Part shown: positions 13,039 to 56,178 of the stretch, piece after piece
How the letters are laid out: each line of letters opens with the position of its first letter
How positions within the stretch are numbered: position 1 is the first letter of the stretch
Virus record (IMG/VR): IMGVR_UViG_3300007512_001412
Location: 13,326 to 77,325 of that record
Strand: one strand, 5' to 3'
DNA length: 64,000 bases
DNA from: a virus
Notes under the pieces: model-generated
The model's input: only the letters and a program-made list of their open reading frames with translations
Databases searched by the model: none
What the model was told of the DNA's origin: nothing
Translations under genes and position numbers: made by a program

Positions 13039-13607
13039 CCGACGCTCTTGCACCTCCGGGCGTACCGGAAGCAGCACAAGATCGTGACGACGTACCTCAT
13101 TCCGCGGACCGTGGGACACCCCCAAGGAGACAACGACATGATCGTGGATCGACAGACCCTCACCCCGGCTCAGGGCGGCTCCTTGCCGACCCTGCCGACG
13201 CACGATTGGCAACCGTGGGCGACCCTCCCGGTCCCGTCGCGGGGCCTGGACGCCGCGAGCAGGGAGTACTCGCTGCCCCGCCGACGCTGCAAGCGGTGCG
13301 GGAAGATCGAGGTCGGGATCGGGGACGGCCCCGCGCCCCCCGGCGACCCCGCCTGCCGGGGCTGATCCTGACAACGACTGCGACGGCTACGTCCCCAACT
13401 GGACGTTCGCGCCTTGCGCAGCGTGCGGGAAGCTGCGACACATCAACGGGCGGGACCGCTCCGTCACCCTGGTGGAGCACCTGAGCGACGGGGACAGCGC
13501 CTTGGCCGCGTGGGAGAGCGCCGCGCAGGAGGGGCCGGGACGGCACATGACGGACGAGGAATTCATCGCGGCCTTGAGCCAGTCGGACGTGCGGGAGGGT
13601 CCGTGAC
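13035..13607 (+). pseudogene. Apparently frameshifted hypothetical gene
   Basis: The high-GC3 frame switches near 13040 and near 13361 (DPACRG / ADPDNDCDGY), suggesting decay or sequencing error. Confidence 0.3.
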
Positions 13608-29646: not shown

Positions 29647-29698
29647 GTCGTTTCCTCCTGGCGAGCCCTTCGCCGGGGCCGGGTGTCGGCCCACCACC

Positions 29699-29727
29699 AA
29701 TGTAGGGTCGCTACCAGATAGCTACAA
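29699..29727 (-). promoter_or_regulatory. Promoter with RTAGCTAY box
   Basis: Minus strand TTGTAG-17-TACATT with the box overlapping the -35. Confidence 0.55.
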
Positions 29728-43320: not shown

Positions 43321-44160
43321 TCAACTCCTTGAAGACGTCCGCGCTGACGCCAGCGCGAGGATACCAAAGACAGCAGCGACGACTGCGATGATCGGGACAG
43401 CGGTGGAGACAGCAGTCCCCGCCTCTTGAACGGACTCGATTGCACCCCGGGCCGACGCGACTGCGCGTTCCAGCTTGTCCAGGGTGTCCTTGAGCTTGGG
43501 CCACAGCCACAAGCCGACTGCCAGGGCGAGCACGCCGACGAGCACGCCGACGAGGATCGGGGCAACCCCGAAGGAATCTTCGACGGGCGTCCCGTCACGG
43601 AGGGCGGGGCCGATGGCGGCTCCCAGGTTGATGCCGTCGTAGTAGGTCGCCTCGACGTCATGCAGGATCGGGAGGACCCCCCCGATGCCTTCGACGTCTT
43701 CCATGCCCCGGGGGAGCATCGGCTTGCCGCTCATGCTGTCGCGGGGCGTCAGCCCCATCGAGAGCGCAGCCATCCACCCGTACCACTCGCGGTTCGCCTT
43801 GCTCCACACGCGCGCGGAGAGGTGAGGCTTCCCGTTGTCGAGGACCGTCCGCATCTTCGCCATGTGGTCGAGGACGACCCGGAAGATCGCGAAGGCGCGT
43901 TGCTGCTCCTTGTCGTCCTTCCCGATCCGCTCCGCGATCGGCACGGCGGCTTCCAACGCCTTGCGGGCGATGGGCCGCATGGTGGAGAGGTCGCGCCACC
44001 ACGCCAGGACACTCTTGCCCTCCTGCGCGGCTTCGCGTCGCACGCGCTCCAGGCAGAAGGGCGCGGGGAGGTCGCAGGACAAGGCCCCCAGGCGCACGCC
44101 GACGACGGCACCGTCCCGTAGGACCGCCTCGTCTTCGTACATGCGGGGGGCGTACGTCAT
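43321..44160 (-). CDS. Membrane protein with two C-terminal TM segments
   Basis: SFGVAPILVGVLVGVLALAVGLWL and a second hydrophobic segment. Confidence 0.7.
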   Translation of the reverse strand: MTYAPRMYEDEAVLRDGAVVGVRLGALSCDLPAPFCLERVRREAAQEGKSVLAWWRDLSTMRPIARKALEAAVPIAERIGKDDKEQQRAFAIFRVVLDHMAKMRTVLDNGKPHLSARVWSKANREWYGWMAALSMGLTPRDSMSGKPMLPRGMEDVEGIGGVLPILHDVEATYYDGINLGAAIGPALRDGTPVEDSFGVAPILVGVLVGVLALAVGLWLWPKLKDTLDKLERAVASARGAIESVQEAGTAVSTAVPIIAVVAAVFGILALASARTSSRS

Positions 44161-44163
44161 GCC

Positions 44164-45003
44164 CTACTTGACCTTCCCCTTGATCATCAGGAGTCCACCG
44201 ATTCCGACCAGTGCCGCCACCGCCATGAGCCCCATGCCGCCTCCCGCGTCACCGCCGCGTTCCTTGAGCGCCCGGACGTCGGCCAGGAGCGCGTGGCTGT
44301 ACGCCGTGCCGCCCGCGAGCGCGAACGCCACGCCTGCGGAACGGAACCGGATGCCGCTGGAGGAGGCGGCGATGCCGCCCAGCGACGTGACGCGCTGGTC
44401 GGTGCCGTCGTAGACCGCGCCCGATCCGCCGCCCAGGAAGCCCGACGCGGCCTCACGCCACCGCTGATCCAGGGCGAGCCAGTCGGAGCCCCGGTTGGGG
44501 ATCGAGTCGAGGACGCGCCGCGCGTCCGTCAGGTTGCGGAGCATCGACTTGACGGCGAACTTGATCTTCTTCCGGGGAGCCGACCGGATGCCCTGCGCCT
44601 TCGCCGCCACCGCTTGGAGCGCCGACGACGTCCACGCGGACGCCGGGAGCCACTGGCCCGCGCCCCACGTGTAGGGGGCAGGGCGTCCCGAGCTGCCGCG
44701 TCCCGGGCGTCCCGGGCGTCCCGGGCGTCCCGGGCTGCCGCGTCCCGGGCGTCCCGACCCACCCTCTTGGATCAGGGGAGCCCCCTCCTCCGCGAGCGTG
44801 TTCATCAACCCCTGCCCCTGGTTGGGGAAGATGAAGTCGAGGATCTGCTGTCCGCGACCCCCGCCGCCGCTCTGGACGTTGCTGCTCTTGCCGCCGCCGC
44901 TCTGGACGTTGCTGCTCTTGCCGCCGCCCTGCTGCGACAGGGTGTTGACGATGTTGTCGAAGAAGCCGCCGACCTGTGTGCGTTCGCCGTAGTCGTACAT
45001 CAT
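44164..45003 (-). CDS. Gly-rich repeat protein with C-terminal TM anchor
   Basis: GGGKSSNVQS x2, PGR repeats, terminal TM plus KGKVK. Confidence 0.7.
   Translation of the reverse strand: MMYDYGERTQVGGFFDNIVNTLSQQGGGKSSNVQSGGGKSSNVQSGGGGRGQQILDFIFPNQGQGLMNTLAEEGAPLIQEGGSGRPGRGSPGRPGRPGRPGRGSSGRPAPYTWGAGQWLPASAWTSSALQAVAAKAQGIRSAPRKKIKFAVKSMLRNLTDARRVLDSIPNRGSDWLALDQRWREAASGFLGGGSGAVYDGTDQRVTSLGGIAASSSGIRFRSAGVAFALAGGTAYSHALLADVRALKERGGDAGGGMGLMAVAALVGIGGLLMIKGKVK
44681..44757. repeat. 9-bp tandem repeat (CGTCCCGGG) encoding RPG
   Basis: Directly visible. Confidence 0.85.
44861..44928. repeat. 30-bp tandem repeat, about 2.3 copies
   Basis: CCGCCGCCGCTCTGGACGTTGCTGCTCTTG repeated exactly. Confidence 0.9.
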
Positions 45004-45009
45004 GAAGCC

Positions 45010-45813
45010 TCAGAATCCGGTGTTGAAGTAGGTTCCGCTGCCCCACCCCGGGTAGCGAGAGAGATCGCCTGCGGGCGCGAGGTCGCGCGGCTGCGCGTAG
45101 TTGGTGCTCCACCCTTGCCGGGTGGGGAGCGTGTTCTGGATGCGGTCGTAGCGCGGGCGCACGGGGGGCGCGGGGAGCGGGTTCATGTGAACCGCCAGCG
45201 GGGACTGCCCGCCGCGCCGCGCCTTGGCCCGGTCGTACGCCGGATCAGCGACACCCTGCGCGCCGAAGGGGTTGCGGGCCGATCCGTCGTCGCGCGCTTC
45301 CGCCTCACCCTGGCGGAAGTAGTAATTCCAGTCCTTGCCGCCGAAGCAGTCTTGGCCGTAGGGCCAGCCGCGAGGCGTGCGATCGACCCACCAGTCATGG
45401 ACCTCCCGATCACCGGGCACCGCACCGAAGGCAGCGTCGAACAACGCTTCTTCCTCCGTGAGCACGGCGTCCTGTAGGAGTCCGCTCTCGATGAAGTCGA
45501 ACCAGCCGATCGCCGGCTGCACGTCGAGCACGCGCCGGGAGGCCCCGTGTGCGAGCACGCGCGAGCCGTCCGGGTAGCCCCACAGCGCCACGCCCCGCCT
45601 CCGATCGACGCCCTCCACGCGCGCCACGCCGCCAAACTGCGGCACGGCGGCGTGAAGCCACCGGGGCACCGGCACGGGCCGACCGCGCAGAGCGGCTGCG
45701 CGCTTCGTCGCCTCGCGCTTCGCCACGTCCCCCTGATCCGGTCCCCCGTCGAGGGATCGGTTCATGGCGACGAGCAGGAAGCCGACGAGGGCCGCGACGG
45801 GGAGGAACGGCAT
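45010..45813 (-). CDS. N-terminally anchored hypothetical protein
   Basis: AGGAG RBS, N-terminal TM, several FG motifs. Confidence 0.7.
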   Translation of the reverse strand: MPFLPVAALVGFLLVAMNRSLDGGPDQGDVAKREATKRAAALRGRPVPVPRWLHAAVPQFGGVARVEGVDRRRGVALWGYPDGSRVLAHGASRRVLDVQPAIGWFDFIESGLLQDAVLTEEEALFDAAFGAVPGDREVHDWWVDRTPRGWPYGQDCFGGKDWNYYFRQGEAEARDDGSARNPFGAQGVADPAYDRAKARRGGQSPLAVHMNPLPAPPVRPRYDRIQNTLPTRQGWSTNYAQPRDLAPAGDLSRYPGWGSGTYFNTGF

Positions 45814-45822
45814 CGGAGACTC

Positions 45823-46107
45823 CTAGCCGTAGTACCCGGGGTAGTACCCCATGCTCGCCTGCTGCATCTGCTCCCGGGCGCGCGCCTTCGCGCCGCCCGA
45901 CCCGGGCTGCATCTGCTGCATCTGCTCCATGCGGCGGCGCTTGACCTCCTCGCGCTTGTCCACGTCGGAGGCACCGCCACCGCCGCCTGCGGGCGGGAGG
46001 CTGGGCGGGAGATCAACCGTGACGTCCACGGACGCGGCCTGGGAACGGCGGGCCAGGAGCAGCAGGGCTGCGCCGCCGCCGAGCAAGTACATGGTGGATC
46101 GCTTCAT
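45823..46107 (-). CDS. Small membrane-anchored protein
   Basis: AGGAG RBS. YLLGGGAALLLLARR. Confidence 0.7.
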   Translation of the reverse strand: MKRSTMYLLGGGAALLLLARRSQAASVDVTVDLPPSLPPAGGGGGASDVDKREEVKRRRMEQMQQMQPGSGGAKARAREQMQQASMGYYPGYYG

Positions 46108-46256
46108 GGTGTCTTTCTCCTAGGGGGTGTTCATCGTGGGAGGGTGTCCATCGGCATCCCGAACCTGCGGGACGTCATCTTCCAGAGTCTCTTCACGCAG
46201 AGCAGATGCACCGACACGGTTCATGTGGGCTTGCCACTTTTCTCTCTGATAGCTCA

Positions 46257-46757
46257 TCACGGCCTCCTGGGTGTTTGAGTAAGAAGATTTCGGTACTGCT
46301 TAGGTGTAATCCTCAAGGTTGGCCCAACCTGCTGTGCGCGAGGGTACTTACCCTTGACTGCCTGCCACCCCTTTCGAGGACCTGCCCCAGGTCGATAGCC
46401 TTCGTCTACGAAGCCCAGCCAAATGCGGAAGGCAGGAGACTTCAGAGCGTAAATGAGCCACCCACGGCGGGGGATCCCGTTACGGTCATTCCCTGCGTTG
46501 ACTGCTTGAGCAAGAACGCGCCCTCGGTACACAGCCTTACCGAAGGTCGCGGACAGCCGACGGCCGAACGCGGAGTAGTGGACGAGCGCGTGACACTTGG
46601 CGTGTTCCCACCCCGCGGCGTACGCCGCAGCCTGCCACGATCCGGCCTTGGGCTTGGGGAAGGCGTACTCCCGATCGGAGGCCACACCGGAGTTGTACGC
46701 GAAGTAGGCCGTCCAGCCCCGCGCCCGCCAGTCCTTCTTGTCCACGCCACCGAACAT
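46257..46757 (-). CDS. Basic hypothetical protein with lower-GC 3' half
   Basis: Coupled start. Begins MFGG. Confidence 0.55.
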   Translation of the reverse strand: MFGGVDKKDWRARGWTAYFAYNSGVASDREYAFPKPKAGSWQAAAYAAGWEHAKCHALVHYSAFGRRLSATFGKAVYRGRVLAQAVNAGNDRNGIPRRGWLIYALKSPAFRIWLGFVDEGYRPGAGPRKGWQAVKGKYPRAQQVGPTLRITPKQYRNLLTQTPRRP

Positions 46758-47986
46758 CAGGTCATCCCTCCGCCGAAGTCGAGGTTGGTCGCCTCCGTGC
46801 CGAAGTCCGGGCCGACCCCTTCGACCCCCGTGATCTCCGTCAGGGAGTTCGCGTCACGCACGGACCATGACTTGTCCTGATCCATGTCCGCGCCGCCGAA
46901 CACGTCACCGCTGAACTCGTCGGCCAGAAGGCGCGCGGTGTTCCGGCGCAGCCGTTCCTCCGCGTACTCGTCCGCGTACGCCTGCGCCTGGGGCTGCGGC
47001 TGCGTGGGCGGGATCACGTTGACCTGATAGACCCGCTTGCTGATCCTGTACCCGCCGACCATGGCCGTGGTCCCGAACCTCGCAGACGACTGCGACGGGA
47101 TGAACGACGGCTTGGACAGCGACTGCGACGGGATGAACGACGGCTTGGACAGCGACTGCGACGGGATGGACAGCGACGGCTGCGACGTGCCCGCCGGGGC
47201 CAGCCCGCCGGGGTAGTAGTAGCTGGTGAAGCTCACCGGGCGGACGATGAAACGCCAGCCGCCCTTGCGGGGGACGGAGAAGCCCACCTCGCGGCTCAGG
47301 ATCCGCCGTGCCGCCTCGCGCGCGTGTCCCGGGTTGGGGGCGGGGAGCGTGATCCTCCAGACGTCCTGGCCTCCGGGGGTCACGAACCAGCGCCCGCCGC
47401 GCGTCTGCGGGATCGCCTGGGGGACGACTGCCGGGGACACGGGGACGTTGGCGTCGGTGAACCCGGGCAGCGTCTTGTTGAAGGGCGAGCCCTTGCTGCT
47501 GTCGATGAACGACGGATCGGCGGTCTTGTTGAACGACACGTTGCTGGTCAGCGCGCCGAAGCCGCCCTCGCACGTGGCGCACCCGAACAGGTTGGGGTCC
47601 CAGCCTTCGGGGACCTCGCCGGGGCGCACCATGCCTGCCGGGGGGACGCCCCACTGAGGCGGGAGGTTCAGACCGGCGGGGATGCGTCCGAAGGCGGATC
47701 GAGCCATCGCTTCCTTGAACTGCTCCTCGTCGTTGCGGCCCAGGGCCTCGATCGCGTCGCGCTGCCACGTCGGCGGCACGTAGCGGTAGGTGCGCGTGCT
47801 GCGCCGCCGCTTCTTGTGGGCGTGGAACTGCGCCTTGTGCTCCCGGGCGGCTTCCCGCGCGAGCCACGCCTGCGCGGTGGTGTGCCAGGAGAGATCCGGC
47901 CCTCCGAAGCTGTCACCCGCGAAGTGAACCCCCGCGCGCTGGAGCCGGTAGGCCGCTGCGGCGTCGATGGCATCGGTCTTGAACAT
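46757..47986 (-). CDS. FG-motif-segmented hypothetical virion polyprotein
   Basis: GGAGG RBS before ATG 47986. Many FG motifs and an internal repeat. Confidence 0.7.
   Translation of the reverse strand: MFKTDAIDAAAAYRLQRAGVHFAGDSFGGPDLSWHTTAQAWLAREAAREHKAQFHAHKKRRRSTRTYRYVPPTWQRDAIEALGRNDEEQFKEAMARSAFGRIPAGLNLPPQWGVPPAGMVRPGEVPEGWDPNLFGCATCEGGFGALTSNVSFNKTADPSFIDSSKGSPFNKTLPGFTDANVPVSPAVVPQAIPQTRGGRWFVTPGGQDVWRITLPAPNPGHAREAARRILSREVGFSVPRKGGWRFIVRPVSFTSYYYPGGLAPAGTSQPSLSIPSQSLSKPSFIPSQSLSKPSFIPSQSSARFGTTAMVGGYRISKRVYQVNVIPPTQPQPQAQAYADEYAEERLRRNTARLLADEFSGDVFGGADMDQDKSWSVRDANSLTEITGVEGVGPDFGTEATNLDFGGGMT
47087..47168. repeat. 33-bp tandem repeat, about 2.5 copies (LSKPSFIPSQS)
   Basis: Directly visible. 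Confidence 0.9.
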
Positions 47987-49995
47987 CAGGAGCCTCCAAT
48001 GCGGCGCTGCGCGCCTAGGTTCGCCGGGGAGGGCCACGCGAAGTGACCGGCGAGGTTCTTCCGCAGGTTCCGAACGGCTCGCGCGAGCGCGCGCGGGTCG
48101 GTCTGCGGTGTTGCGGCGGCGAGCACTCGGATCTGCGCTGCCACCCGGGCAGGATACTCCCCCAATTCGCCGTTTCCGTCCAGCATCGCCGCTTCCTCTG
48201 CAAGCCCCTCCGCGCACATGAGGTGCTTGCCGATGCAATCGGGGCACTGACGCCGGGGATCGGTGAGGTGCTGCTCCAGCAGGATCAACTGCTTGCACAC
48301 CTCGCGCATGTTGAAGCGCGGATCGCGCAGGGGAAGGAGTCCGTCCTTGTCCAGCATGGCTGTCTCCCCACCGAATCCGCCCACGCTCCAGACGGAGCCC
48401 TTCGGGATGATCGAGGTCTGCTCCGACAGCACCTTGAGGATGCCCCCGCCCGGTCCCTGGCCCGGGAGCACGGGGATGCCCCGTCGCTGACGCTCCTGCG
48501 TGAACGCCCAGGACTGGATCGACTGCGCCGACTTCCCGATCGCTTCCGCGAGCCGCATCGCCAGGAGCGCGGTGACGGCAGAGGCCGCGTGGATCTTGAC
48601 CGGCCCCTGCTCCGACTGGACGGTGGCCCCCTTGTGGGACACCTCGCGGCCAAACGCGGTGCGCTCCGCCGCGCCCATGACGTCGCTCGCCTTGACCCCC
48701 TGCGCCGCGATGTACTCGCGGATCTGACCGATGGTCGGGCCGATGGGGTACTTCAACTCGCGCTGCTGCGCGACGGAGAGCCCGTAGACCCACAGCGGGA
48801 GTACGATCTGGTCGGGGAGGATGCCGTTGATGTTCAGCCGCAACGCGGACGTCAACGCCGCGTTCCGGGTCGGGAATGGCGCAACGCCCCGATCCACATC
48901 CACGCGGAACTCCGCCTGCGGGAACATCATCTTGAGCTTGGCGGGCGAGAACATGTCGGTCGGAGCGGACTCCAACGGACGGTTGAGCCCCATGATCGCC
49001 GCGAGGTCGAACAGGTTGCGGTAGACGTCGAAGCCTGCGAGGACGTCCCAAAACTTCACGGCCATGCGCCGCCAGCCGACGACGTTGCCCGTGTTGCGGA
49101 GCCCGGGGCTGTTGATATCCATGATGCCGCGCGTCCGCGTGCGGATCCGCTCGACTTTGTTCTCCAACTGCCGGATGCGCCACTGTGGCTTGCGCTTGGC
49201 GTTCTTCAACTGCTGACGGGCCGCGTTGTACTCCTTGAGCGTGCGGTCGAGGCCCTGCATGGCCTGCCCCCACTTGTTCCGCGCCCGCCGGTACGCGACG
49301 ACGGGATCGTCCTCGCGGATCACGGCGGCGGAGATCAACTCCATGACGCCGACCACCGCCTTGGCGACCTCCGCGACGGCAGCGCCGCCGCCCTCGCCGT
49401 CCCCCTGGCCTCCGCCGCCCTTGTAGGCGGCCGACACGTTGGCCACCATGGAGCCGTAGACGACTACGCTGGCGCTGTCCCCTTCGATCCGCACGCCGCG
49501 CCCGCGCGTGGCGACGTAGCCGCCGAACGGGGCGTCGGCGGAGGGGCCGATGGACGTGGGAACGAGCGGAGCCGCCTTCACGGGCGCACCGTCCGCGCGC
49601 TTCGCGCCCTTGAAGAACAGGTCCAGGGCGGTCTGCGCGGCCTGCGCGAGTCGGCGGTGCCGCCACCGCTGCCCTTCCGACGTACCCCGGCGGGTCTGAT
49701 CCAACTGCTGCCCCGCGCTCTGGACGTCCACGACGGCGTCGTTGAGCGCGTTGAGCGCGGCCTGCGCCTGCCACACCTCGTCAGCGGTCGGGACCATGCC
49801 CTTCGCCGCAGCCTGACTCCACGCCGACTGGTACGCCCGCAGGAGGCTCTGAACGGACGAGTCCACACCGGGCATCGCGTCCCCGATGACAACGGGGTGC
49901 ATCGCACCGAAGCCGTCTACGAACACCTCGCGCCGCCCTTCCTCGTCAGCGAGGCGCGGGTCGCGGGCGATCTTTCCCCGGTGTGCCCAAGTCAT
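47986..49995 (-). CDS. Large helical hypothetical virion protein with C-terminal Cys/His module
   Basis: 669 aa, coiled coil. C-terminal EVCKQLILLEQHL...CPDCIGKH follows a GGFGG motif. Confidence 0.75.
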   Translation of the reverse strand: MTWAHRGKIARDPRLADEEGRREVFVDGFGAMHPVVIGDAMPGVDSSVQSLLRAYQSAWSQAAAKGMVPTADEVWQAQAALNALNDAVVDVQSAGQQLDQTRRGTSEGQRWRHRRLAQAAQTALDLFFKGAKRADGAPVKAAPLVPTSIGPSADAPFGGYVATRGRGVRIEGDSASVVVYGSMVANVSAAYKGGGGQGDGEGGGAAVAEVAKAVVGVMELISAAVIREDDPVVAYRRARNKWGQAMQGLDRTLKEYNAARQQLKNAKRKPQWRIRQLENKVERIRTRTRGIMDINSPGLRNTGNVVGWRRMAVKFWDVLAGFDVYRNLFDLAAIMGLNRPLESAPTDMFSPAKLKMMFPQAEFRVDVDRGVAPFPTRNAALTSALRLNINGILPDQIVLPLWVYGLSVAQQRELKYPIGPTIGQIREYIAAQGVKASDVMGAAERTAFGREVSHKGATVQSEQGPVKIHAASAVTALLAMRLAEAIGKSAQSIQSWAFTQERQRRGIPVLPGQGPGGGILKVLSEQTSIIPKGSVWSVGGFGGETAMLDKDGLLPLRDPRFNMREVCKQLILLEQHLTDPRRQCPDCIGKHLMCAEGLAEEAAMLDGNGELGEYPARVAAQIRVLAAATPQTDPRALARAVRNLRKNLAGHFAWPSPANLGAQRRIGGS

Positions 49996-50657
49996 GCGCC
50001 CAAGTCCTTCCCTTGCGCGAGGCGGGTGCGCTTGCGCTTGCGTGCCATGCCCTCACCGTACCCGTGGGACACGTCCCGAAGGACGACGAACCCGATCCCG
50101 GCTGCGATCAGGAACGGCCACGGCCCCAGGCCCGGGGGGGCGGGCGGGAGGCCCGCCTGTCCCGACCGGGTGGCGATGGCTTGCTGCACCGCGTCGGCCA
50201 ACTCGTTGACCGGGACGTTGTGCGTCAGCTTGTTGACCTTGTCGTAGATCGCTTGCAGCTTGTTGAAGTACCCCTCGCAGTCCATCACGTGCGCGCCCAG
50301 GCCCACGGCGGTCGCAATGTCCCGCAGGGACCATGTGAGGTTCCACGCGGGACCGACCGGGGGGAAGCGAAAGACCTTCTCCGCGATCTCGCCCAGGCTC
50401 CCACCGCCGTAGAGCCAGCGCATGACGACGCCCCGCTCCGGGCTGCTCATGTACCAGCAGTCCATCCCGGCGTAGTTGCGGGGGGACGACTTGATCATGC
50501 GCTCCGCCCGGATCAGGAGCCCCTGCGCGAGCGCGTGGACGTCGCTGGGGAGCCGACCGGCGCGGAAGGATCGGTCCAGCCCACGCTGCAACGCGAGGTT
50601 GTTCCGCAGCGCGTTGCCCTGCGCGATCTTGCTCACGTTGTCCACGCGCCGCGTCAT
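49992..50657 (-). CDS. Protein with C-terminal TM and basic tail
   Basis: GLGPWPFLIAAGIGFVVL. ATGA overlaps on both sides. Confidence 0.7.
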   Translation of the reverse strand: MTRRVDNVSKIAQGNALRNNLALQRGLDRSFRAGRLPSDVHALAQGLLIRAERMIKSSPRNYAGMDCWYMSSPERGVVMRWLYGGGSLGEIAEKVFRFPPVGPAWNLTWSLRDIATAVGLGAHVMDCEGYFNKLQAIYDKVNKLTHNVPVNELADAVQQAIATRSGQAGLPPAPPGLGPWPFLIAAGIGFVVLRDVSHGYGEGMARKRKRTRLAQGKDLGA

Positions 50658-50857
50658 CGTCCGCTCCCGTGCAACAGGTAGTTGCGCCCGTTGTAGAGGA
50701 CGGTCAACGCCCCGGACACCGCCAGGACGCCCCCCGCGACCGGGCGGTCCTTCGCCAGCGTGCTTCCGGCCCACACCATGAACGGCCCCAGGACGAACAC
50801 ATCCATGAGCCGCACCGACTGCGCCTTGCCGTGGATCGGGTGGGACAGTGCGGTCAT
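50654..50857 (-). CDS. Small two-TM viral membrane protein
   Basis: KAQSVRLMDVFVLGPFM...GALTVLYNGRNY. Confidence 0.7.
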   Translation of the reverse strand: MTALSHPIHGKAQSVRLMDVFVLGPFMVWAGSTLAKDRPVAGGVLAVSGALTVLYNGRNYLLHGSGR

Positions 50858-51252
50858 CGACGTCTCGGGTGGATCGGGCCCACGGCGGGCAGCTCGACCG
50901 CGTACGCGGCGTCTTCCGCGTCGCGGTAGTCGCTCCACGCGCCCAAGGATACCCACTCGTCCCCCTGCCAGTGCCATGCCTCCCACGGGGTCGAGACGCC
51001 CGGGGTCGTGTCCTTGACGACGGCGACGTCGTGGAAGCCCTGCATCTGAAGCCCTGGCTCGCCAGGAACAGCGGCGAAGGAGTGCCACAGCTTCCAGGGG
51101 TGGGCACGGAGCCGGTTCGCTCGCGCGAGCATCTGCTTGAGGATGTGGGTCTTTGCCGGGGTGGGAGCCGCCTTCGTCTTCTTCGCCACCGCGAGGACGC
51201 CGATGAAACCGATCAGGTACAGGAGGTTCACGTTGCTCTGTGCGCGGCTCAT
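50854..51252 (-). CDS. N-terminally anchored membrane protein
   Basis: LLYLIGFIGVLAVAKK. Confidence 0.65.
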   Translation of the reverse strand: MSRAQSNVNLLYLIGFIGVLAVAKKTKAAPTPAKTHILKQMLARANRLRAHPWKLWHSFAAVPGEPGLQMQGFHDVAVVKDTTPGVSTPWEAWHWQGDEWVSLGAWSDYRDAEDAAYAVELPAVGPIHPRRR

Positions 51253-52226
51253 GCGGCTACCCCGCTCTCACGCTGCTCGCGCAGGCGTACGAGGACCGCG
51301 CCGAAGCCCGTGCCCCTGTGCCGCTTGCGGATCTCCTTGAGGATCGTGTGGACGTCGTCGGCGTACCAGCCGTAGTTGCTGCGCCACTCCTGCGCGGCGG
51401 CGCTGTTCCAGCCGTACCGCTCGCCCATCGCCTTCGCGTTGCGGTCGGCGGTGTCCCGGGCGGCGCGGGCGTCCAAACGCGCGTGGTGCAGCGCGGTGAC
51501 GTCGTACCGGGCGTACATCGCAGCGCGAGCCGCGAAGGGGTACGGCCCCTTCCCCATCGCGCCGAAATACGACGCCCGGGAGCGCGGCCCCAGGTCGAGC
51601 CCGGTGTCGAGCGCGGACGCCCACCACAGATCCCCGCCGAACATTGCCCGCTTGTGTCCCAGGATGCCGTTGTAGACCTCCGACACCGCAACCCCCGCGA
51701 TCCCGGCGCGTTCCTCCGCGCTGTTGCCGGTCAGCATCCCCAGGCGCGCGGACGGGTCGTCGCGGTACTCGCGGCCCCCGATCCAGTAGCGCGTGATGCA
51801 ATGGTACAGCGACGGCTCCCCGGGCTTGCCGCCCGTCGAGAGCATGACTTCGGCCCGGATGGATCGGGGACGGAGCCGCATCGCAGCGGCGTAGCCCTGG
51901 TCGCCGGGGTACTTGACCGGGTCGCGGGGATCGGCGGGCCGCATCGCGCGCCAGCCCCGGGCCAGCAACTCCCCTGCACGGGCCGCTGCGAGCGCATCGC
52001 AGTCCTCATGCCCCTCCATGAGCAGGTTGAGGTAGTCGCACCAGATTTCGCCCTTCTCGACTTCGTACCGGACGCCCGATTCGTACAGGCCCGGGAGCGG
52101 CTTCTCCCCCTTGGTGCGGGCACGCTTGTCGTACGACAGGAAGATGCGCGCGTTCTCGCGCGCCAGCCAATTCAGGAGGCGGAGAGCGGCTTGCTCTTGG
52201 AAAGCCAGCTTGACGACGATATCCAC
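51249..52226 (-). CDS. Transglutaminase-like cysteine hydrolase, putative maturation protease
   Basis: LYESGVRY, EDCDALAAARAGEL (Cys), YHC (His), DDPSARLGM (Asp). Confidence 0.65.
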   Translation of the reverse strand: MDIVVKLAFQEQAALRLLNWLARENARIFLSYDKRARTKGEKPLPGLYESGVRYEVEKGEIWCDYLNLLMEGHEDCDALAAARAGELLARGWRAMRPADPRDPVKYPGDQGYAAAMRLRPRSIRAEVMLSTGGKPGEPSLYHCITRYWIGGREYRDDPSARLGMLTGNSAEERAGIAGVAVSEVYNGILGHKRAMFGGDLWWASALDTGLDLGPRSRASYFGAMGKGPYPFAARAAMYARYDVTALHHARLDARAARDTADRNAKAMGERYGWNSAAAQEWRSNYGWYADDVHTILKEIRKRHRGTGFGAVLVRLREQRESGVAA

Positions 52227-52230
52227 GGCG

Positions 52231-52962
52231 TCACACGTACGACAGTTGGAAGTCGAGGATCGTGGAGAGCAGGTTCGCCGGGTTGTTGTTGACGAGCCGT
52301 ACCACGGAGCCGGGGCCGATCGGGATCTGATCCATCGCGTCGGCAGCGATGGCGTGCTGCACTTGCCCCGTGGTGTCGAGCACCTGTACTTGGATCAGGG
52401 CGCGCTGCGCCGGGTTCTGCGTCAGGACGGACACCGACCGGGCGTAGGGCGGGACGTTGAAGTCCTCCTGTGCGCCCGGGAGGACCCCCCGCGTGCGGAA
52501 CGTCTTGTGGAGGTCGGTGACCTGAGCCGATCCCGAACCGTGGTCCTCGACGGTGCAGAACACGCGGTTGACCGCGTTGGCCCAATTCGCCGCACGGATC
52601 TGGAGCGTCTTGGCCTTGACGTAGAAGACGACGGACCCGCCGCCCGCCGTGAGCAGGAGCCGACCGGCGTAGCCGTCGCCCGTCGTCCACTCCGCCTCGA
52701 CTTCAAACGGGCGCGACTCCCCAAGGAGCCCGACGCGGCTCACCAAGTGAACGCGCCGATCCCATGCGAGGTTCGCCTCGCCGTTGATGACTTGCTGGTA
52801 CTGCGCCGCCGTGGGCGTGACCGGCTGTGCGCCGCCCGCGTTCACGGGAAGCGGGATGCTGTCCGCGCGATGCGAGAGCTTGGCCGCTGCGGGACACCGC
52901 AGCGTGCTGAACAGCAACTCGCGCGGGTTGACCGGACCAGCCGGGGGTGCGTAGCCGCCCAT
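52231..52962 (-). CDS. All-beta protein, candidate second capsid/penton protein
   Basis: Alternating beta-strand pattern throughout, VPPYARSVSV, AGGAGG RBS, adjacent to the MCP candidate. Confidence 0.5.
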   Translation of the reverse strand: MGGYAPPAGPVNPRELLFSTLRCPAAAKLSHRADSIPLPVNAGGAQPVTPTAAQYQQVINGEANLAWDRRVHLVSRVGLLGESRPFEVEAEWTTGDGYAGRLLLTAGGGSVVFYVKAKTLQIRAANWANAVNRVFCTVEDHGSGSAQVTDLHKTFRTRGVLPGAQEDFNVPPYARSVSVLTQNPAQRALIQVQVLDTTGQVQHAIAADAMDQIPIGPGSVVRLVNNNPANLLSTILDFQLSYV

Positions 52963-53003
52963 GCGTCAACCTCCTACGCGGGTGTGGGTTCAGTCGCGTT
53001 CCT

Positions 53004-53131
53004 CGCCCCCGGTTGGGTCGGGGCCACCGTGGCGCACGGCGACCCCGACCCGCACGCGGGGGAGTAACCCCGTACCCGGGGCGCAGCGCGCGCGGACGGC
53101 GACACGCTGCGACCCCCAGGGGATCGGGTCG
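53004..53131 (-). other. Nested multi-stem RNA structure between the capsid candidates
   Basis: GGGTCGGGG/CCCCGACCC, CGCCCC/GGGGCG, GCGGGG/CCCCGT, CGCAGCG/CGCTGCG and CGACCC/GGGTCG stems. Confidence 0.5.
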
Positions 53132-53139
53132 GATCGGAC

Positions 53140-53796
53140 CTAGACCGCGCCCGGGCCGCAGCCTGTGGTGCCGCGCTTGAGGCCGACGAGGGTGACGATC
53201 AACTCCGTCGTGGTGGTCGAGGCCGGCAGGTTGGCCGCGATGGTGATATCGAGGCCAGCCGCGATGGCCGCACCCTTCACCAGCCCACGGACGAACGACG
53301 CGGTGCCGAAGACCGCGATCGGGATGCCCGTGGCGTTGTTGAAGATGCGCCGGTCACCGAAGTCGATCGCGGTGATCGTCCACCCGCCCACGCTGCCCTG
53401 GAACGTCACGTCCTCCGCGACGAAGTCGAACTGCGGGCGGATCGTGACGGTGTTCGCGCCGGCATCCGGGGCCTGACCGGTGGAGCCCGACAGGAGCGTC
53501 TTCTGGACGACCTGCTTGGCCTTGCCGGCGGCGTTCCAGGGCTTCTGGCGGTGGGAGGGGCCACGCGGGACGAACCGCCGCACGGACGGGGGCATCACCG
53601 CCGCGCCGAGGGACGGGTAGTCCATGTCACCGAAGTCGTCGTAGTCGTAGCCCAGGGAGGCGTAGTCCATCGCACCCAGGTCATCATCGACCAACTGCAA
53701 GCCGTAGCTCATGTCTGCTCCAAGAGAGAGGGGAGGTCCCGATGTAGGTGCTCCGATGACCGCTTGCCCCTTGGCGTTGCGGTAGATCCGGTGCAT
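53140..53796 (-). CDS. Candidate single jelly-roll major capsid protein with acidic N-terminal propeptide
   Basis: GGAGG RBS. About 115-aa C-terminal beta domain (TVTIRPQ..F.AE...WTITAIDFG...GIP..F...GLDITIAAN...TLVG). The N-terminus has repeated LG/YG/FG motifs. Confidence 0.55.
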   Translation of the reverse strand: MHRIYRNAKGQAVIGAPTSGPPLSLGADMSYGLQLVDDDLGAMDYASLGYDYDDFGDMDYPSLGAAVMPPSVRRFVPRGPSHRQKPWNAAGKAKQVVQKTLLSGSTGQAPDAGANTVTIRPQFDFVAEDVTFQGSVGGWTITAIDFGDRRIFNNATGIPIAVFGTASFVRGLVKGAAIAAGLDITIAANLPASTTTTELIVTLVGLKRGTTGCGPGAV

Positions 53797-53880
53797 CGAC
53801 ACACGATTCCTCCAGCACTAGTGGGCGATGATGCCCGTGCGACGGCGAGCACCACGCTCACCTCCGCGATTTCCTGATGC

Positions 53881-54993
53881 TCAGATGGCGCAACCGCACC
53901 GTCCGAAGCGTCCGAAGTAGTCCGCGTAGGGATCGGCCCCCACGCTGTTGCCGCCGATGCCGTCCACGACGCCACCGAACACGTACCCGAAGCTGTCGTC
54001 CGCGAGGGCCGATCCCGCGCGGAGGAACGCCTCGTCCTGCGAGGCGTCAGCCTGCGCCGACGACCAGTCGGCGGGAGTCTCCGCCGCGTAGAAGTACCCC
54101 TCCGGGGTCTGGCCGTACGCCGCCTGCGGGGGCAAGTAACCCGGCACCCCGGGCTGCGGGGGCTGCGGGGCGTACTGCTGCGACTGCTGCGCCCAGGCCG
54201 CTTCCGCCGCGTCGAAGACCCGCATCTGCTCGTCCTTCCAGACGACCCAGGCGTCGTTCGCCTTCTGTAGCTCGCGGGCTTCCGCCTTCACCGCCTGGAG
54301 GTTCGCGACGACCCCCCGCAGATCGGCTACCGTCTTCTGCGCGCGCTTGCTGCGGGCCTTGCCCTGCGCGGCCAGCTTGTCGTACTTGCGGCGGAGGCTC
54401 TTGTACTTGCGGCGGAGGTGCGCCGCTCTCTTCACCCCGGATTCGCGCTGCTTGCGAATCACGACGAGCTTGTCCTTGGCGACCTTGACGCTGCGGCGGA
54501 GGGTCTGGATTTCCGCGTGGCGGCGGCGAGCCTTCTTCTTCCAATCCGACGCGAGGTCGCGGGCGTCGTAGTAGCGCCGCTTCCACCTAGGGCACACGCC
54601 CCCCCGACGCCGCCCGAACCACGCGGCGGCTGCGTCCGTCTGCGCGTCCGTGTCGGCCTGCCATGCGTTGCCGCCACTGAACAGGGCCAGCCCGTTGTCG
54701 TCGCCGTCCGTGGCGTCGTCGGTGTCAGCGGCCCACGCGCCGAAGTTGTTGGGGAACGCCGCACGGTCGAGGCGTTCTTCGTCGATCCCCCGGAAGGGGT
54801 AGGCATCTTCGTCGAGCCCCTGGAAGGGGAATGCCTGCTGAACAATGTCGAACGCGCCCATGCTGCTCCCTGCCCGCCCGAATTCGGGCGCGAATCGAAG
54901 TGCTGTGTGATCCACCGTGGGCCGACCCGCCCCGTCGAACGACACCGGGGCTACGCCCAGGTAGTGCAGTCCGGTGGGGTCGGGTCGGCTCAT
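53881..54993 (-). CDS. Acidic-basic-acidic coiled-coil protein (scaffold/core precursor candidate)
   Basis: Basic coiled coil flanked by acidic arms rich in FG/IG/VG motifs. Confidence 0.7.
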   Translation of the reverse strand: MSRPDPTGLHYLGVAPVSFDGAGRPTVDHTALRFAPEFGRAGSSMGAFDIVQQAFPFQGLDEDAYPFRGIDEERLDRAAFPNNFGAWAADTDDATDGDDNGLALFSGGNAWQADTDAQTDAAAAWFGRRRGGVCPRWKRRYYDARDLASDWKKKARRRHAEIQTLRRSVKVAKDKLVVIRKQRESGVKRAAHLRRKYKSLRRKYDKLAAQGKARSKRAQKTVADLRGVVANLQAVKAEARELQKANDAWVVWKDEQMRVFDAAEAAWAQQSQQYAPQPPQPGVPGYLPPQAAYGQTPEGYFYAAETPADWSSAQADASQDEAFLRAGSALADDSFGYVFGGVVDGIGGNSVGADPYADYFGRFGRCGCAI

Positions 54994-55018
54994 GGCGTGT
55001 CTTCCTTCGTCCTTCGAC

Positions 55019-55534
55019 CTACAGGCCGCGTCCCGCCATCGCCGGGTGCATCATGTGCGGGGCGTGGGCGTGCTGGTGGTAGCCGATCTGCGGGGGGCGA
55101 CCGGAGAAGCCCGAGAAGCCCTCACCGGCACCCATCTTCTGGCCGATCTCGTAGACGGCGGCACCGAGGATGCCGTTGCCGAAGTTGAGCGCGTGCGCGC
55201 CCGCCGCCGACTCGCCGTTGAACGACTGCATCAGGCCGTAGCCCGCGAGGACGCCGCCCAGGAGCAGGCGACCGTCGATGTTCCACAGCTTGATCTTGTC
55301 GGTGCCGTACTTCGCGGACAGCGTGGACGTGGCGAACAGGGCCGACTGCGTCTCCAGCGTGGCGACGACGGCACCCATCCCCTCCTTGTGGGAGAGGTTG
55401 ATCTTCTTCATCTGGTTCTGGAGGCGCTGAACCTGCTGCTGCGCCTTGCTCACGCCGCCCTTGGCGGTGTTGCGGCGACGGCGCGTGGTGGTGCGCTTGC
55501 GGGTTCCTGCGGCGACGGAGAGGGGGTTTGCCAT
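55019..55534 (-). CDS. Basic N-terminus membrane-associated protein, first gene of the late operon
   Basis: RKRTTTRRRR, hydrophobic helices, C-terminal FSGFSG..IG..MAG. Confidence 0.7.
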   Translation of the reverse strand: MANPLSVAAGTRKRTTTRRRRNTAKGGVSKAQQQVQRLQNQMKKINLSHKEGMGAVVATLETQSALFATSTLSAKYGTDKIKLWNIDGRLLLGGVLAGYGLMQSFNGESAAGAHALNFGNGILGAAVYEIGQKMGAGEGFSGFSGRPPQIGYHQHAHAPHMMHPAMAGRGL

Positions 55535-55914: not shown

Positions 55915-56178
55915 GTGACAAACGACAAAGACGGCGGCGACCGTGCCGACAAGCGCGCGGCTGATCTCGCAGAAAATCTCGCGGAGCACGCGGTTCACAC
56001 CGCGAATGAGGCCGCAGACAAGATGGCGGAGGCGATCTCAGCCGGGATTTCCGCTGCTGCGCTCCGGGTCGCGGGGCCGTTGAGCAAGGCCGTGCGCGAC
56101 GGGGGGGACACGATCCAGGGGTTCCTCAACGGTCTGTTCGCCCCGATGTACGACGAGGACGACGAGGACTCCCCATGA
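55915..56178 (+). CDS. Small helical hypothetical protein
   Basis: GGAG RBS, ATGA overlap downstream. Confidence 0.5.
   Translation: MTNDKDGGDRADKRAADLAENLAEHAVHTANEAADKMAEAISAGISAAALRVAGPLSKAVRDGGDTIQGFLNGLFAPMYDEDDEDSP

Follow-up and report, generated by a model that had tools for sequence, protein, structure and literature searches.

A Phe-Gly bias in the capsid module of an apparently tailless virus: possible cleavage sites for a conserved cysteine-peptidase-like protein

Introduction

The head protease of phage T4, gp21, cuts many head proteins at one short common motif. A passage of PMC11297242 (citing PMC3323674) describes the same for the head protease of phiKZ. The viral DNA analysed here, a stretch of 64,000 nucleotides (the window; positions 13,326 to 77,325 of IMG/VR record IMGVR_UViG_3300007512_001412), resembles T4 (gp21) and phiKZ (gp175) in three ways: a single short motif is repeated across virion proteins, from the major capsid protein (here a candidate) to many minor or internal ones, and is missing from replication proteins; this motif often lies near N-termini and between domains; and the protease gene, here that of a peptidase-like candidate, is located inside the morphogenetic module. 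However, T4 and phiKZ are tailed phages whose capsids have the HK97 fold and whose serine proteases cleave after Glu, whereas the window encodes a jelly-roll capsid candidate and a Cys-His-Asp candidate enzyme, and the motif, Phe-Gly (FG), may be cleaved.

In jelly-roll viruses of the adenovirus type, several precursors, basic DNA-binding core proteins among them, are processed by a cysteine protease at sites where Gly follows a hydrophobic residue; adenain and the proteases of African swine fever virus and poxviruses cut virion precursors at Gly motifs. The window shares with this group a jelly-roll capsid (again a candidate), a candidate enzyme of the cysteine-protease type and candidate sites made of a hydrophobic residue and Gly. 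The adenain group, in contrast, has the Ulp1/adenain fold, belongs to eukaryotic viruses and recognizes a Gly-Gly or Gly-x-Gly consensus with Met, Ile or Leu upstream, as opposed to a transglutaminase-like protein and Phe-Gly here, and neither a sequence nor a fold link to adenain-type proteases appeared among the Foldseek and VIA matches of our candidate enzyme. Known transglutaminase-like members have cell-wall isopeptides, a tubulin tail, or unknown substrates. With these peptidases (Transglut_core clan; PeiP/PeiW, TgpA, CPR-C4, 3isr, 3kd4) the candidate has in common the order Cys...His...Asp, a Cys that opens a helix, His and Asp on neighbouring strands, and its best fold and feature matches, but it departs from the known members in matching no Pfam profile, in the unusually acidic E-D-C-D around the putative nucleophile, and in being encoded in a viral capsid operon.

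As for the capsid, the viruses with vertical single jelly rolls (SPV1, HHIV-2, SH1, P23-77) have genomes of 16-31 kb, and we know of no long acidic and Arg-rich capsid arm in any of these four. For the Simuloviridae, a passage of PMC12642351 gives genomes of 16-19 kb. The virus studied here is like the vertical single-jelly-roll viruses in its best capsid fold matches, in two small capsid-type genes side by side and in its many small membrane proteins, and unlike them in that a complete relative reaches 105.7 kb with terminal repeats and that the capsid fold scores are middling. Phe-Gly in disordered segments also serves as a recognition unit in nucleoporin FG domains, and one readable by a viral capsid at the HIV-1 capsid pocket; compared with nucleoporins, FG density in our module proteins is far lower (about one per 110 aa), with random spacing and strongly acidic flanks, in a prokaryotic virus.

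An apparently tailless lineage and its capsid module

The window represents an undescribed lineage of jelly-roll viruses, apparently tailless, that occurs together with Myxococcota; its capsid module is present at over 140 genome loci, most of them from Myxococcota MAGs. In the complete relative (G001; 106 called proteins), no terminase, portal, HK97 capsid or tail family was among the best 25 of 31 Pfam and the best 25 of 56 PHROG families matched by 89 of the proteins; the other 17, outside this family scan, include two giant proteins and the core genes homologous to the window, and the window homologues of these core genes had no family match. The window has 69% G+C and holds many spurious ORFs; the genes of the module have a GC3 of 0.86-0.93 and protein-level homologues. 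In descending order of coordinates, the module comprises:

55019..55534, minus strand: first module gene, 171 aa; basic N-terminus and Gly-rich hydrophobic part; one FG (aa 118)
53881..54993, minus strand: arm protein, 370 aa; seven FG (aa 38, 84, 126, 335, 339, 360, 363)
53140..53802, minus strand: capsid-protein candidate, 220 aa; FG at aa 57, 148, 165
52231..52962, minus strand: possible second capsid protein, 243 aa, adjoining the capsid candidate; no FG
51702..52226, minus strand: predicted transglutaminase-like Cys-His-Asp protein, catalytic domain (aa 1-175)
51249..51701, minus strand: non-conserved C-terminal tail of the same protein (aa 176-325); FG at aa 196, 221, 308
49992..51252, minus strand: three small proteins of 132, 67 and 221 aa with hydrophobic helices; no FG (gene calls and sequences)
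47986..49995, minus strand: 669-aa protein; four FG (aa 29, 157, 448, 541)
46757..47986, minus strand: 409-aa protein; eight FG (aa 27, 99, 134, 143, 304, 363, 395, 404)
46257..46757, minus strand: 166-aa protein; FG at aa 2, 64, 72; weak coding score (11)
45010..45813, minus strand: 267-aa protein; four FG (aa 60, 129, 157, 183)
44164..45003, minus strand: Gly-rich protein, 279 aa, with a C-terminal membrane helix; no FG
43321..44160, minus strand: 279-aa protein with two C-terminal membrane helices; FG at aa 197, right ahead of the first helix, and at aa 265, within the second

The 55019..55534 family has 83 conserved members among the called proteins of related loci, and in distant relatives its FG occupy conserved positions of the hydrophobic part, outside arms. 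The possible second capsid protein is conserved in 78 called proteins, and 53 of its distant homologues hold 12 FG against 33.4 expected, a count from related sequences and hence no independent test. The arm protein begins with a segment that closes with FG (54877-54903) and resembles the canonical capsid arm at its N-terminus, followed by an acidic region, FG with an Arg run (54601-54633), a basic coiled coil and an acidic tail that carries four FG (cluster at 53884-54003) and closes with Cys-Gly-Cys. Its product groups with those of 47986..49995 and 46757..47986 through common N- and C-terminal segments: the 669-aa protein has, in common with the two others, the FG segment at its N-terminus and a helix motif at its C-terminus, and the 409-aa protein ends in the shared helix and acidic FG motif (46892-46936). 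The start of the 46757..47986 gene overlaps the stop of the upstream gene, and a longer ORF of 1005 aa continues into 47986-49995 in another frame. Homologues of the 669-aa protein in relatives hold 9 and 11 FG (2.7 and 3.2 expected), and that of the 267-aa protein in one relative (L005) is 626 aa long with 9 FG (3.4 expected). The FG preceding the membrane helix of 43321..44160 is common to 4/7 aligned homologues, and no homologue of 46257..46757 was found in the relatives. No packaging ATPase of the FtsK/HerA type was recognized, and none of eight sequences inspected holds a Walker A motif.

FG excess in proteins of the module

An earlier note on this DNA had proposed that clustered hydrophobic-Gly motifs segment the late proteins as a protease maturation code, and the motif strings it listed are all present in the genes to which it assigned them. 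Above what composition predicts, the comparison that the note had called for, the 13-15 proteins of 43321-55534 contain 35 FG against 13.1 expected (within-protein shuffling, z 6.7). With an analytic expectation (35/14.2), FG ranked first of 320 dipeptides in an unbiased scan of the module, an excess of ~2.5-fold, and the remainder of the window showed none (29/32.7), in agreement with the note's remark that the motif is not evident in replication genes. Gly comes next after ~28% of all Phe in the module vs. 8% in the remaining window. The wider hydrophobic class did not stand up, however: among module proteins, [FLIVYM]G had no significant excess (118 vs. 106.1 expected, p about 0.10), [LIVM]G fell slightly below expectation (71 vs. 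81), and LG, IG, VG, YG and MG were not enriched. Taken residue by residue, Phe was the sole one with excess Gly after it (2.2-3.4 fold, whether the surroundings were polar, middling or hydrophobic), Y, W, L, I, V and M showing none. The hydrophobic-Gly observation was half right, and its interpretation is partly supported, as discussed below.

At the DNA level, TTYGG occurs 35 times in frame 0 and 4 and 2 times in the other frames of the module, and GGC, GGT, GGG and GGA are all in use as Gly codons of FG sites; a signal confined to one frame and spread over four codons acts on the protein and is not a DNA motif. FG spacing is approximately random in the window and close relatives (median gap about 43 aa), with no dense clustering (gaps of 12 aa or less: 5 vs. 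4.5 expected, and 25 vs. 22.7). The enrichment is thus real, Phe-specific, in frame and restricted to the module, and FG is here a true protein-level short linear motif, in a loosely kept context of D/E-x-F-G-(G/A/R).

Sequence context and conservation of FG

The placement of the motifs at boundaries between acidic arms and functional segments, as earlier described, holds for a part of the sites. Asp is 3.8-fold enriched two residues ahead of F, G or A follows FG, the net charge upstream is negative, junctions of FG followed by an Arg run recur, and several FG sit where acidic segments meet Arg-rich or membrane segments. On the other hand, the FG excess extends to non-polar surroundings, and within the folded beta domain some FG occupy conserved positions. 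Some pairs lie 2-4 residues apart and some FG 2-10 residues from a protein end; in the relatives, the first 40 residues hold 43 FG against 25.8 expected.

FG density is shared across relatives, the syntenic module of five de-duplicated relatives having a 2.33-2.95 fold excess; in the complete relative, the ratio is 48/19.4 in the module (2.47) vs. 54/47.9 elsewhere (1.13). Conservation of individual sites, which the note had wished to see in homologues, is mixed. An FG closes the N-terminal segment shared by three different proteins in 13/14 aligned sequences, another stands ahead of the Arg run in 9/17, a C-terminal acidic FG is present in 8/14, and one further site is common to 7/7, but over half of the FG sites are lineage-specific, density being kept while individual sites turn over. 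Conservation of Gly is higher after Phe than elsewhere (66% vs. 49%), whereas the Phe of FG is no better conserved than other Phe (40% vs. 38%). In 81 more distant relatives, FG enrichment is limited to the capsid-protein arm, the remaining module proteins having no excess (0.98), and coexists with a Cys domain that is 52-64% identical.

The capsid-protein candidate and its arm

The capsid-protein candidate consists of a short conserved N-terminus, an acidic disordered arm (aa 23-97, window 53512-53736) and an eight-strand beta sandwich (aa 99-210); in the AlphaFold model, pLDDT is under 50 at aa 23-67 and above 85 in the sandwich. Its best fold matches are SPV1 VP4 (Z 8.4 over 115 aa, rmsd 3.0), PBCV-1 (8.1), HHIV-2 (7.3) and PRD1 P3 and P23-77 VP17 (7.1), with non-viral sandwiches scoring alike (PHM 8.2, nucleoplasmin 7.0-7.4). 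The arm carries SLG/SYG/DLG/DFG strings, including two MDY-x-SLG copies. Across 41 homologues, F148-G149-D150 in the sandwich is invariant or nearly so, and the arm leads from acidic F-G repeats through a Phi-G-(A)-Arg-run junction to the jelly roll, with acidic and basic counts that co-vary (r 0.72). The N-terminal repeats of related arms take the form (D)nF(E)G, in tandem and in variable number, and swap freely among F-G, F-E-G, L-E-G, V-G and I-G. Tandem FG repeats occur only in the capsid arms of distant relatives, in poly-Asp surroundings.

The transglutaminase-like protein

The Cys protein is the most conserved gene of the module and is linked to the capsid genes in all related loci. Among 39 homologues (36-72% identity), E74-D75-C76, H142 and D156-D157 are invariant; in the structural model, with pLDDT above 90 across most of residues 11-160, C76 opens helix 76-94, and H142 and D156 lie on the adjacent strands 141-149 and 152-156. 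Almost all of the best Foldseek matches are transglutaminase-like peptidases (E 0.07-0.4), VIA gave Z 7.2 (3kd4), 6.0 (PeiP) and 5.6 (PeiW), and Atlas clusters with Transglut_core scored 0.93-0.94. These matches and the invariant residues lend moderate support to the prediction, already made in the note, that it is of the transglutaminase-like peptidase kind; against this, it matches no Pfam family at E 0.1 and no PDB sequence, and the Foldseek E-values are as high as given. The idea that the protein also processes itself at FG of its C-terminal tail fails for the family, since most homologues are only 180-200 aa long and have no such tail. In the model, the tail is disordered at aa 181-230 and helical afterwards, and the first FGG after the catalytic domain is shared only with the closest tail-bearing homologue (P0002).

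FG as a possible maturation cleavage site

The FG bias may mark cuts by this conserved cysteine-peptidase-like protein. We tentatively favour the reading that FG is the recognition site of the Cys-His-Asp protein of the module, at which it would cleave, although an uncleaved FG binding motif is nearly as likely. For the candidate peptidase, Phe would occupy P2 and Gly P1, with a small or basic residue at P1'. Substrate choice by papain-type peptidases depends mainly on P2, where bulky hydrophobic residues are preferred, many viral papain-like proteases cut after Gly and ahead of a small residue, and anionic pro-pieces that balance cationic peptides are usually cleaved off. FG punctuates the flexible arms and linkers of capsid-module proteins, and during virion maturation the enzyme would strip N-terminal targeting segments and anionic pro-segments, freeing parts that are Arg-rich, coiled-coil or membrane-anchored. 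The junction of acidic repeats and Arg run in the capsid-protein arm would be the clearest candidate site. In the ~100-kb clade that holds this window, FG has spread to about ten additional module proteins.

That the Cys protein processes FG-bearing precursors, as the earlier note had it, is favoured by the presence of a Cys-His-Asp protein in the same operon, and is disfavoured by the 81 distant relatives, which keep the Cys domain with an FG excess in the capsid arm and none in their other module proteins. Further observations speak against cleavage: the loose spelling of the repeats (F-G, F-E-G, L-E-G, V-G, I-G) fits an interaction motif better than a strict site; a cut would serve little purpose where FG are 2-4 residues apart or near protein ends; the FG excess includes non-polar surroundings and invariant sites in the folded beta domain; and the Cys protein has fold matches of middling quality (Z 5.6-7.2, Foldseek E above 0.05) and no match in Pfam. 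Transglutaminase-like folds also include cell-wall-lysing isopeptidases (PeiP, PeiW) and cross-linking enzymes, which likewise counts against cleavage.

Alternative readings

Possible, if somewhat doubtful, is that FG is bound and not cut, a putative pocket on a capsid component gripping the exposed Phe while Gly permits a turn of the backbone. The pocket might belong to the jelly-roll base, the neighbouring 243-aa protein, the membrane proteins, or the Cys protein as an adaptor; FG-bearing proteins would be recruited into the particle, and within the capsid arm the acidic F-G repeats would be a built-in scaffold pairing with the Arg-rich stretch. The HIV-1 capsid pocket, which binds FG of CPSF6, NUP153 and nucleoporins, offers a precedent for an FG-reading capsid and supports such binding. 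So do the tandem, loosely spelled repeats of variable number in capsid arms, the balance of acidic and basic charge inside the arm, the FG in pairs and near protein ends, the acidic flanks, which would hold Phe exposed, and the turnover of sites at kept density, typical of linear motifs in disordered regions. However, the random spacing in the window and close relatives leaves no multivalent clustering there, a generic cation-pi sticker predicts Tyr-Gly or Trp-Gly too (neither is enriched), and the conserved Cys-His-Asp enzyme would be left without a role.

Rather unlikely, FG has no single function, and the bias reflects paralogous copies of one ancestral FG-bearing arm plus a few structural FG fixed in folded domains. 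This agrees with the grouping of the 53881, 47986 and 46757 products by their common terminal segments, with the capsid-arm-like N-terminus of the first, and with the 55019 family, whose surplus of FG in distant loci consists of conserved structural positions. Yet more than half of the sites are lineage-specific while every genome keeps a 2.3-2.95 fold excess, which requires continuing selection, so that inheritance alone is insufficient; moreover, unrelated proteins are affected too (among them the products of 45010, 43321 and 46257 and the tail of the Cys protein), and Gly is better conserved after Phe than elsewhere.

It is less probable still that another enzyme cuts at FG, either the DUF2201-type metallopeptidase/VWA/MoxR set or a host protease, the Cys protein then being, for example, a virion-borne cell-wall endopeptidase or a cross-linker. 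A DUF2201_N metallopeptidase and a VWA protein are encoded both in the window (28618-29700 and neighbours) and in the complete relative, both from the clade where many proteins have acquired FG, and the fold matches of the Cys protein include the viral lytic isopeptidases PeiP and PeiW. But this association is that of a single clade, and thus one evolutionary event, the DUF2201 set lies outside the module, and the capsid-arm FG repeats are family-wide; in the one small element examined (L044), ten proteins around the module had no DUF2201 match. The complete relative also encodes a separate endolysin of the Peptidase_M15 family, which makes a lysin role for the Cys protein unnecessary.

Finally, an artefact of wrong frames in GC-rich DNA, of a DNA-level motif or of chance, for which one could invoke the 69% G+C, the crowd of spurious ORFs and the choice of the motif by eye after reading the sequence, is refuted by the first rank of FG among all dipeptides, its frame specificity with mixed Gly codons, the GC3 and protein-level homologues of the genes concerned, and replication in independent genomes.

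A Phe-Gly signature in the capsid module

The source contig, an IMG/VR virus record, is linear (77.3 kb, 69% G+C) and approximately 48% complete; the window covers its bases 13326-77325. Genes were called from codon-position G+C combined with codon log-odds, and the capsid module emerged as a tight minus-strand operon of 13-15 genes running from 55534 down to 43321, whose ten largest products had no meaningful match in Pfam or PHROG. The module features discussed here are:

55019 family, minus strand: first gene of the module
53881-54993, minus strand: arm protein
53140-53802, minus strand: capsid candidate
52231 family, minus strand: gene adjoining the capsid candidate
51249-52226, minus strand: Cys protein (catalytic domain aa 1-175, tail aa 176-325)
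47986-49995, minus strand: FG-bearing protein
46757-47986, minus strand: FG-bearing protein

For the last of these, 46757-47986 is the supported gene, its ATG overlapping the upstream stop; a 1005-aa GTG ORF from the mechanical list (46757-49774) extends into the neighbor 47986-49995, which lies in a different frame.

An earlier note had proposed that clustered hydrophobic-Gly motifs form a protease maturation code in these proteins, and every X-Gly string that it quoted is present in the sequence. Enrichment over composition holds for Phe-Gly (FG), with 35 occurrences vs. 13.1 expected (z 6.7; none of 1000 within-protein shuffles reached 35), but not for the broad [FLIVYM]G class, which we rejected (118 vs. 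106.1, not significant); [LIVM]G is, if anything, low in the module (71 vs. 81). An unbiased scan ranked FG first among 320 testable module dipeptides (35/14.2), as compared with rank 273 of 400 in the other 51 proteins of the window (29/32.7). Gly follows 28% of module Phe vs. 8% elsewhere; no excess of following Gly is seen in the module for Tyr, Trp, Leu, Ile, Val or Met. The Phe-then-Gly excess is strongest in polar surroundings (3.4 fold) and reaches 2.2-2.3 fold in middling and non-polar ones. At the nucleotide level, the coding frame of the module holds 35 TTYGG and the other two frames hold 4 and 2, with all four Gly codon families used; selection is thus on the peptide rather than on the DNA, and a DNA-motif explanation was rejected. 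Phe-Gly is a real, specific and conserved capsid-module signature in an unannotated virus lineage; our literature search returned no description of this lineage, nor of FG motifs in prokaryotic virus capsids.

Across six genomes, the context of 233 FG is characterized by Asp (3.8-fold enriched two residues before the Phe, 2.4-fold one before), by Tyr or Phe three to four residues upstream of the Phe, and by a following Gly (2.1 fold) or Ala and then Asp, Glu or Pro, with the 15 upstream residues being net acidic. FG spacing in the window and its close relatives equals the random expectation (median gap ~43 aa), which led us to reject nucleoporin-like clustering there. The first 40 residues of proteins from the relatives are enriched (43 FG vs. 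25.8 expected), and the 53881, 47986 and 46757 products, otherwise unrelated, have three short FG-bounded segments in common: an N-terminal one ending in FG (FG in 13/14 aligned sequences), one in which FG precedes an Arg run (9/17), and a C-terminal helix with an acidic FG after it (8/14).

The capsid candidate and its arm

For the capsid candidate, AlphaFold run on a 41-sequence alignment leaves the arm disordered at aa 23-67 (pLDDT below 50) and models aa 99-210 confidently as an eight-strand sandwich. The best fold matches of this model are capsid proteins: SPV1 VP4 (Foldseek E 3.7e-3; VIA Z 8.4 over 115 aa), PBCV-1 (Z 8.1), HHIV-2 (Z 7.3), and PRD1 P3 and P23-77 VP17 (Z 7.1). Since non-viral sandwiches score alike, we hold the jelly-roll capsid call with moderate confidence; PDB sequence profiles gave only low-complexity acidic matches for this family.

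The arms of the 41 homologues share one organization: a conserved ~30-aa segment, one to nine repeats, a junction, and then the sandwich. In each repeat, F-G or F-E-G (sometimes with L, V or I) comes after a run of Asp; in most cases the junction reads acidic-acidic-F-G-(A) and leads into an Arg run. The numbers of acidic and of basic residues in the arms are correlated (r 0.72; 0.62 with length removed), a link whose strength the p-value exaggerates because the 41 sequences are related. The window carries a diverged arm with two MDY-x-SLG units, which explains the SLG and DLG strings of the earlier note. This two-copy MDY-(A/P)-SLG unit (53512-53736) is kept in at least one capsid homologue of every close-clade locus and is found in no other protein.

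The N-terminus of the arm protein (54877-54993) looks homologous to the conserved N-terminal segment of canonical capsid arms in distant loci (e.g., L036 and L108), so that the arm protein may be a duplicated or split-off capsid arm. Its family ends in a conserved Gly-Cys-Gly-Cys at the extreme C-terminus (window 53884-53901; homologues at L003, L005, L008, L010 and L014), which might serve for lipidation, metal binding or a disulfide; in locus L020 the same Cys-Gly-Cys string lies within the N-terminal arm of the capsid homologue.

A transglutaminase-like Cys protein

Invariant residues of the Cys protein are E74-D75-C76, H142 and D156-D157; the structural model places C76 at a helix start and H142 and D156 on adjacent strands. 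The family had no match in Pfam or PDB sequence searches. Foldseek best matches were almost all transglutaminase-like peptidases (TglA, 3isr, TgpA, CPR-C4 and PeiP; E 0.07-0.4), VIA gave Z scores of 7.2 (3kd4), 6.0 (PeiP) and 5.6 (PeiW), and in the Atlas feature search clusters with Transglut_core scored 0.93-0.94. The label "transglutaminase-like" already used in the earlier note is therefore reasonable as to fold, any peptidase activity being putative. The further proposal that it processes itself is doubtful, as the tail (aa 176-325, three FG) is unconserved and its first FGG is common only to the closest tail-bearing homologue. In their C-terminal 30-40 residues, short homologues have an Arg-rich tail that comes after a conserved hydrophobic-x-Gly ~25 residues past the catalytic domain, an arrangement that echoes the junction of hydrophobic-Gly and Arg run in the capsid arm.

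Relatives and the spread of the FG bias

More than 165 homologues match the N-terminal 170 residues of the Cys protein; most are 180-200 aa in length, and hardly any has a name. Scans with the Cys-family alignment yielded two more IMG/VR genomes, 158 metagenome loci and 143 loci in GTDB species genomes. Within IMG/VR, Cys-family matches lay only on this contig, the complete relative G001 (IMGVR_UViG_3300025141_000040) and the distant G002, and capsid-family matches only on this contig and G001. The majority of genome loci belong to MAGs labeled Myxococcota or mis-binned "proteobacteria", with several copies within one genome; one 9.4-Mb chromosome (OZ245034.1) carries at least six. Four families form the core that recurs in the GTDB and metagenome loci (window 51249-55534; loci L085-L164): that of 55019, that of the capsid candidate (53140), that of 52231 and that of the Cys protein. 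The 56175 family accompanies them on the other strand. These core loci look like a large unrecognized family of integrated or co-binned virus-like elements.

Five de-duplicated loci with a Cys-domain identity ≥66%, the close relatives, have further module genes in common with the window. Among them, G001 is a complete genome of 105.7 kb with direct terminal repeats (loci L003, L166-L170), a size well beyond that of known single-jelly-roll viruses, provided that the capsid call is correct. Scanning 89 of its 106 called proteins revealed a Peptidase_M15 endolysin, and no terminase, portal, HK97-capsid or tail family among the best 25 of 31 Pfam and 25 of 56 PHROG families; Peptidase_M15 was not found in the window's own, only partly complete, contig.

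FG density is retained in all five close relatives, whose syntenic modules hold 2.33-2.95 times the expected FG. In G001 the excess is confined to the module (48/19.4; two giant downstream proteins 7/10.5; other 86 proteins 54/47.9). Across all 86 de-duplicated loci, module FG is 928/645.7 (1.44) and that of the flanks 335/329.6 (1.02). The 81 more distant loci show an excess in two families only, the capsid candidate (253/112.7) and the 55019 family (72/35.0, stemming from fixed positions within a hydrophobic domain), with a ratio of 0.98 in the remaining module proteins. The FG-rich capsid arm is thus ancestral, and it is in the window's large-genome clade that FG has extended to some ten further proteins.

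Of all FG sites, more than half are lineage-specific. Pairwise comparison shows the Phe of FG to be kept at 40% of aligned positions vs. 38% for other Phe, and the Gly at 66% vs. 49% for other Gly. The pattern is one of motif turnover at a maintained density. Fewer FG than expected occur in the Cys family (3/18.3) and in the 52231 family (12/33.4); we set aside avoidance of self-cleavage as an explanation, because the sequences within each family are homologous and not independent samples.

Possible roles of the FG motif

The protease reading of the earlier note stands as our leading hypothesis, in a form narrower than originally stated (FG only, with self-processing doubtful), and we tentatively favor cleavage of FG by the Cys protein while rating it at somewhat below an even chance. 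Several observations support it. The most conserved gene of the operon encodes a peptidase-type enzyme, and Phe-specific recognition followed by Gly and a small or basic residue matches papain-type P2 specificity and the sites of many viral papain-like proteases. FG lies at the ends of shared N-terminal segments and at acid/base junctions, the arm charges balance as in an anionic pro-piece, and G001 encodes a separate endolysin. There is also precedent in T4 and in phiKZ (PMC11297242, citing PMC3323674), where one motif is common to many head proteins. Speaking against cleavage are the loose spelling of the repeats (F-G, F-E-G, L-E-G, V-G), FG that lie few residues apart or few residues off a protein end, enrichment also in structured and in non-polar surroundings, and distant relatives that keep the enzyme without a module-wide code. 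In addition, transglutaminase folds also function as lysins and cross-linkers.

The loose repeats and the turnover of sites agree with an uncleaved binding motif, which we consider possible but rather unlikely: it requires a putative receptor and leaves the enzyme without explanation. A generic aromatic-Arg "sticker" model is disfavored, Tyr-Gly and Trp-Gly not being enriched. An inherited habit without one function seems improbable, FG cleavage by another enzyme more so, all further readings taken together have only a slight chance, and an artefact is the least credible of all.

If the Cys protein does cleave FG, this transglutaminase-like cysteine peptidase would cut after D/E-x-F-G, stripping charge-balancing anionic F-G-repeat pro-arms off the Arg-rich capsid arms and freeing targeting segments, and in the 100-kb clade the code would have come to include roughly a dozen virion proteins. 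That a lineage of prokaryotic jelly-roll viruses has evolved a maturation system of its own in the style of adenovirus or T4, with both pro-arm removal and clade-wide extension of the code, is conceivable though on balance unlikely. Shared cleavage codes occur in tailed phages and in eukaryotic adenovirus-like and giant viruses; to our knowledge, proteolytic maturation is not known from prokaryotic jelly-roll viruses (PRD1-like, sphaerolipovirus-like, SPV1). If true, no earlier maturation protease code would precede this one in such a virus, its protease fold would be one not known in that role, and the pairing of a Phe-Gly code with a transglutaminase-fold enzyme would represent an independent origin of capsid maturation, as well as provide a simple sequence rule to predict mature virion proteins in a lineage without annotation. 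Under any of these mechanisms, a large unrecognized element group is defined by the module (>140 GTDB loci, mostly Myxococcota MAGs, and free genomes up to 106 kb), and the FG arms offer an experimental handle on particle assembly in it.

Other genes of the window

Genes outside the module include:

56175-57677, plus strand: divergently transcribed gene for a 500-aa protein that has a run of 50 Glu/Asp residues, an extended Pro/Gln-rich central part and a helical C-terminus that is conserved
41439-43316, minus strand: basic protein of 625 aa, rich in Lys/Ala and without FG enrichment, immediately downstream of the module
32271-38960: giant DarB-like methylase/SNF2-helicase gene

Products encoded in the rest of the window comprise:

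family A DNA polymerase fused to uracil-DNA glycosylase
tyrosine integrase
DUF3987 protein
sugar-modifying enzymes
DUF2201 metallopeptidase/VWA protein
LysM + SNF2/ResIII helicase protein of ~2,230 aa (2,223 by gene call, 2,350 as the longest ORF scanned)

Among called proteins that flank the module, 47 are homologues of the 56175-57677 product, with a length of ~350 aa; the product is a possible scaffold and, having no Walker A motif, not a packaging ATPase. The 41439-43316 product could be a DNA-condensing or core protein. The giant DarB-like gene, also seen at L044:13367-18421 and L004:17756-20336, lies on the same strand after the capsid module both in small elements and in the distant 117.7-kb G002, a position that fits a virion-packaged anti-restriction protein.
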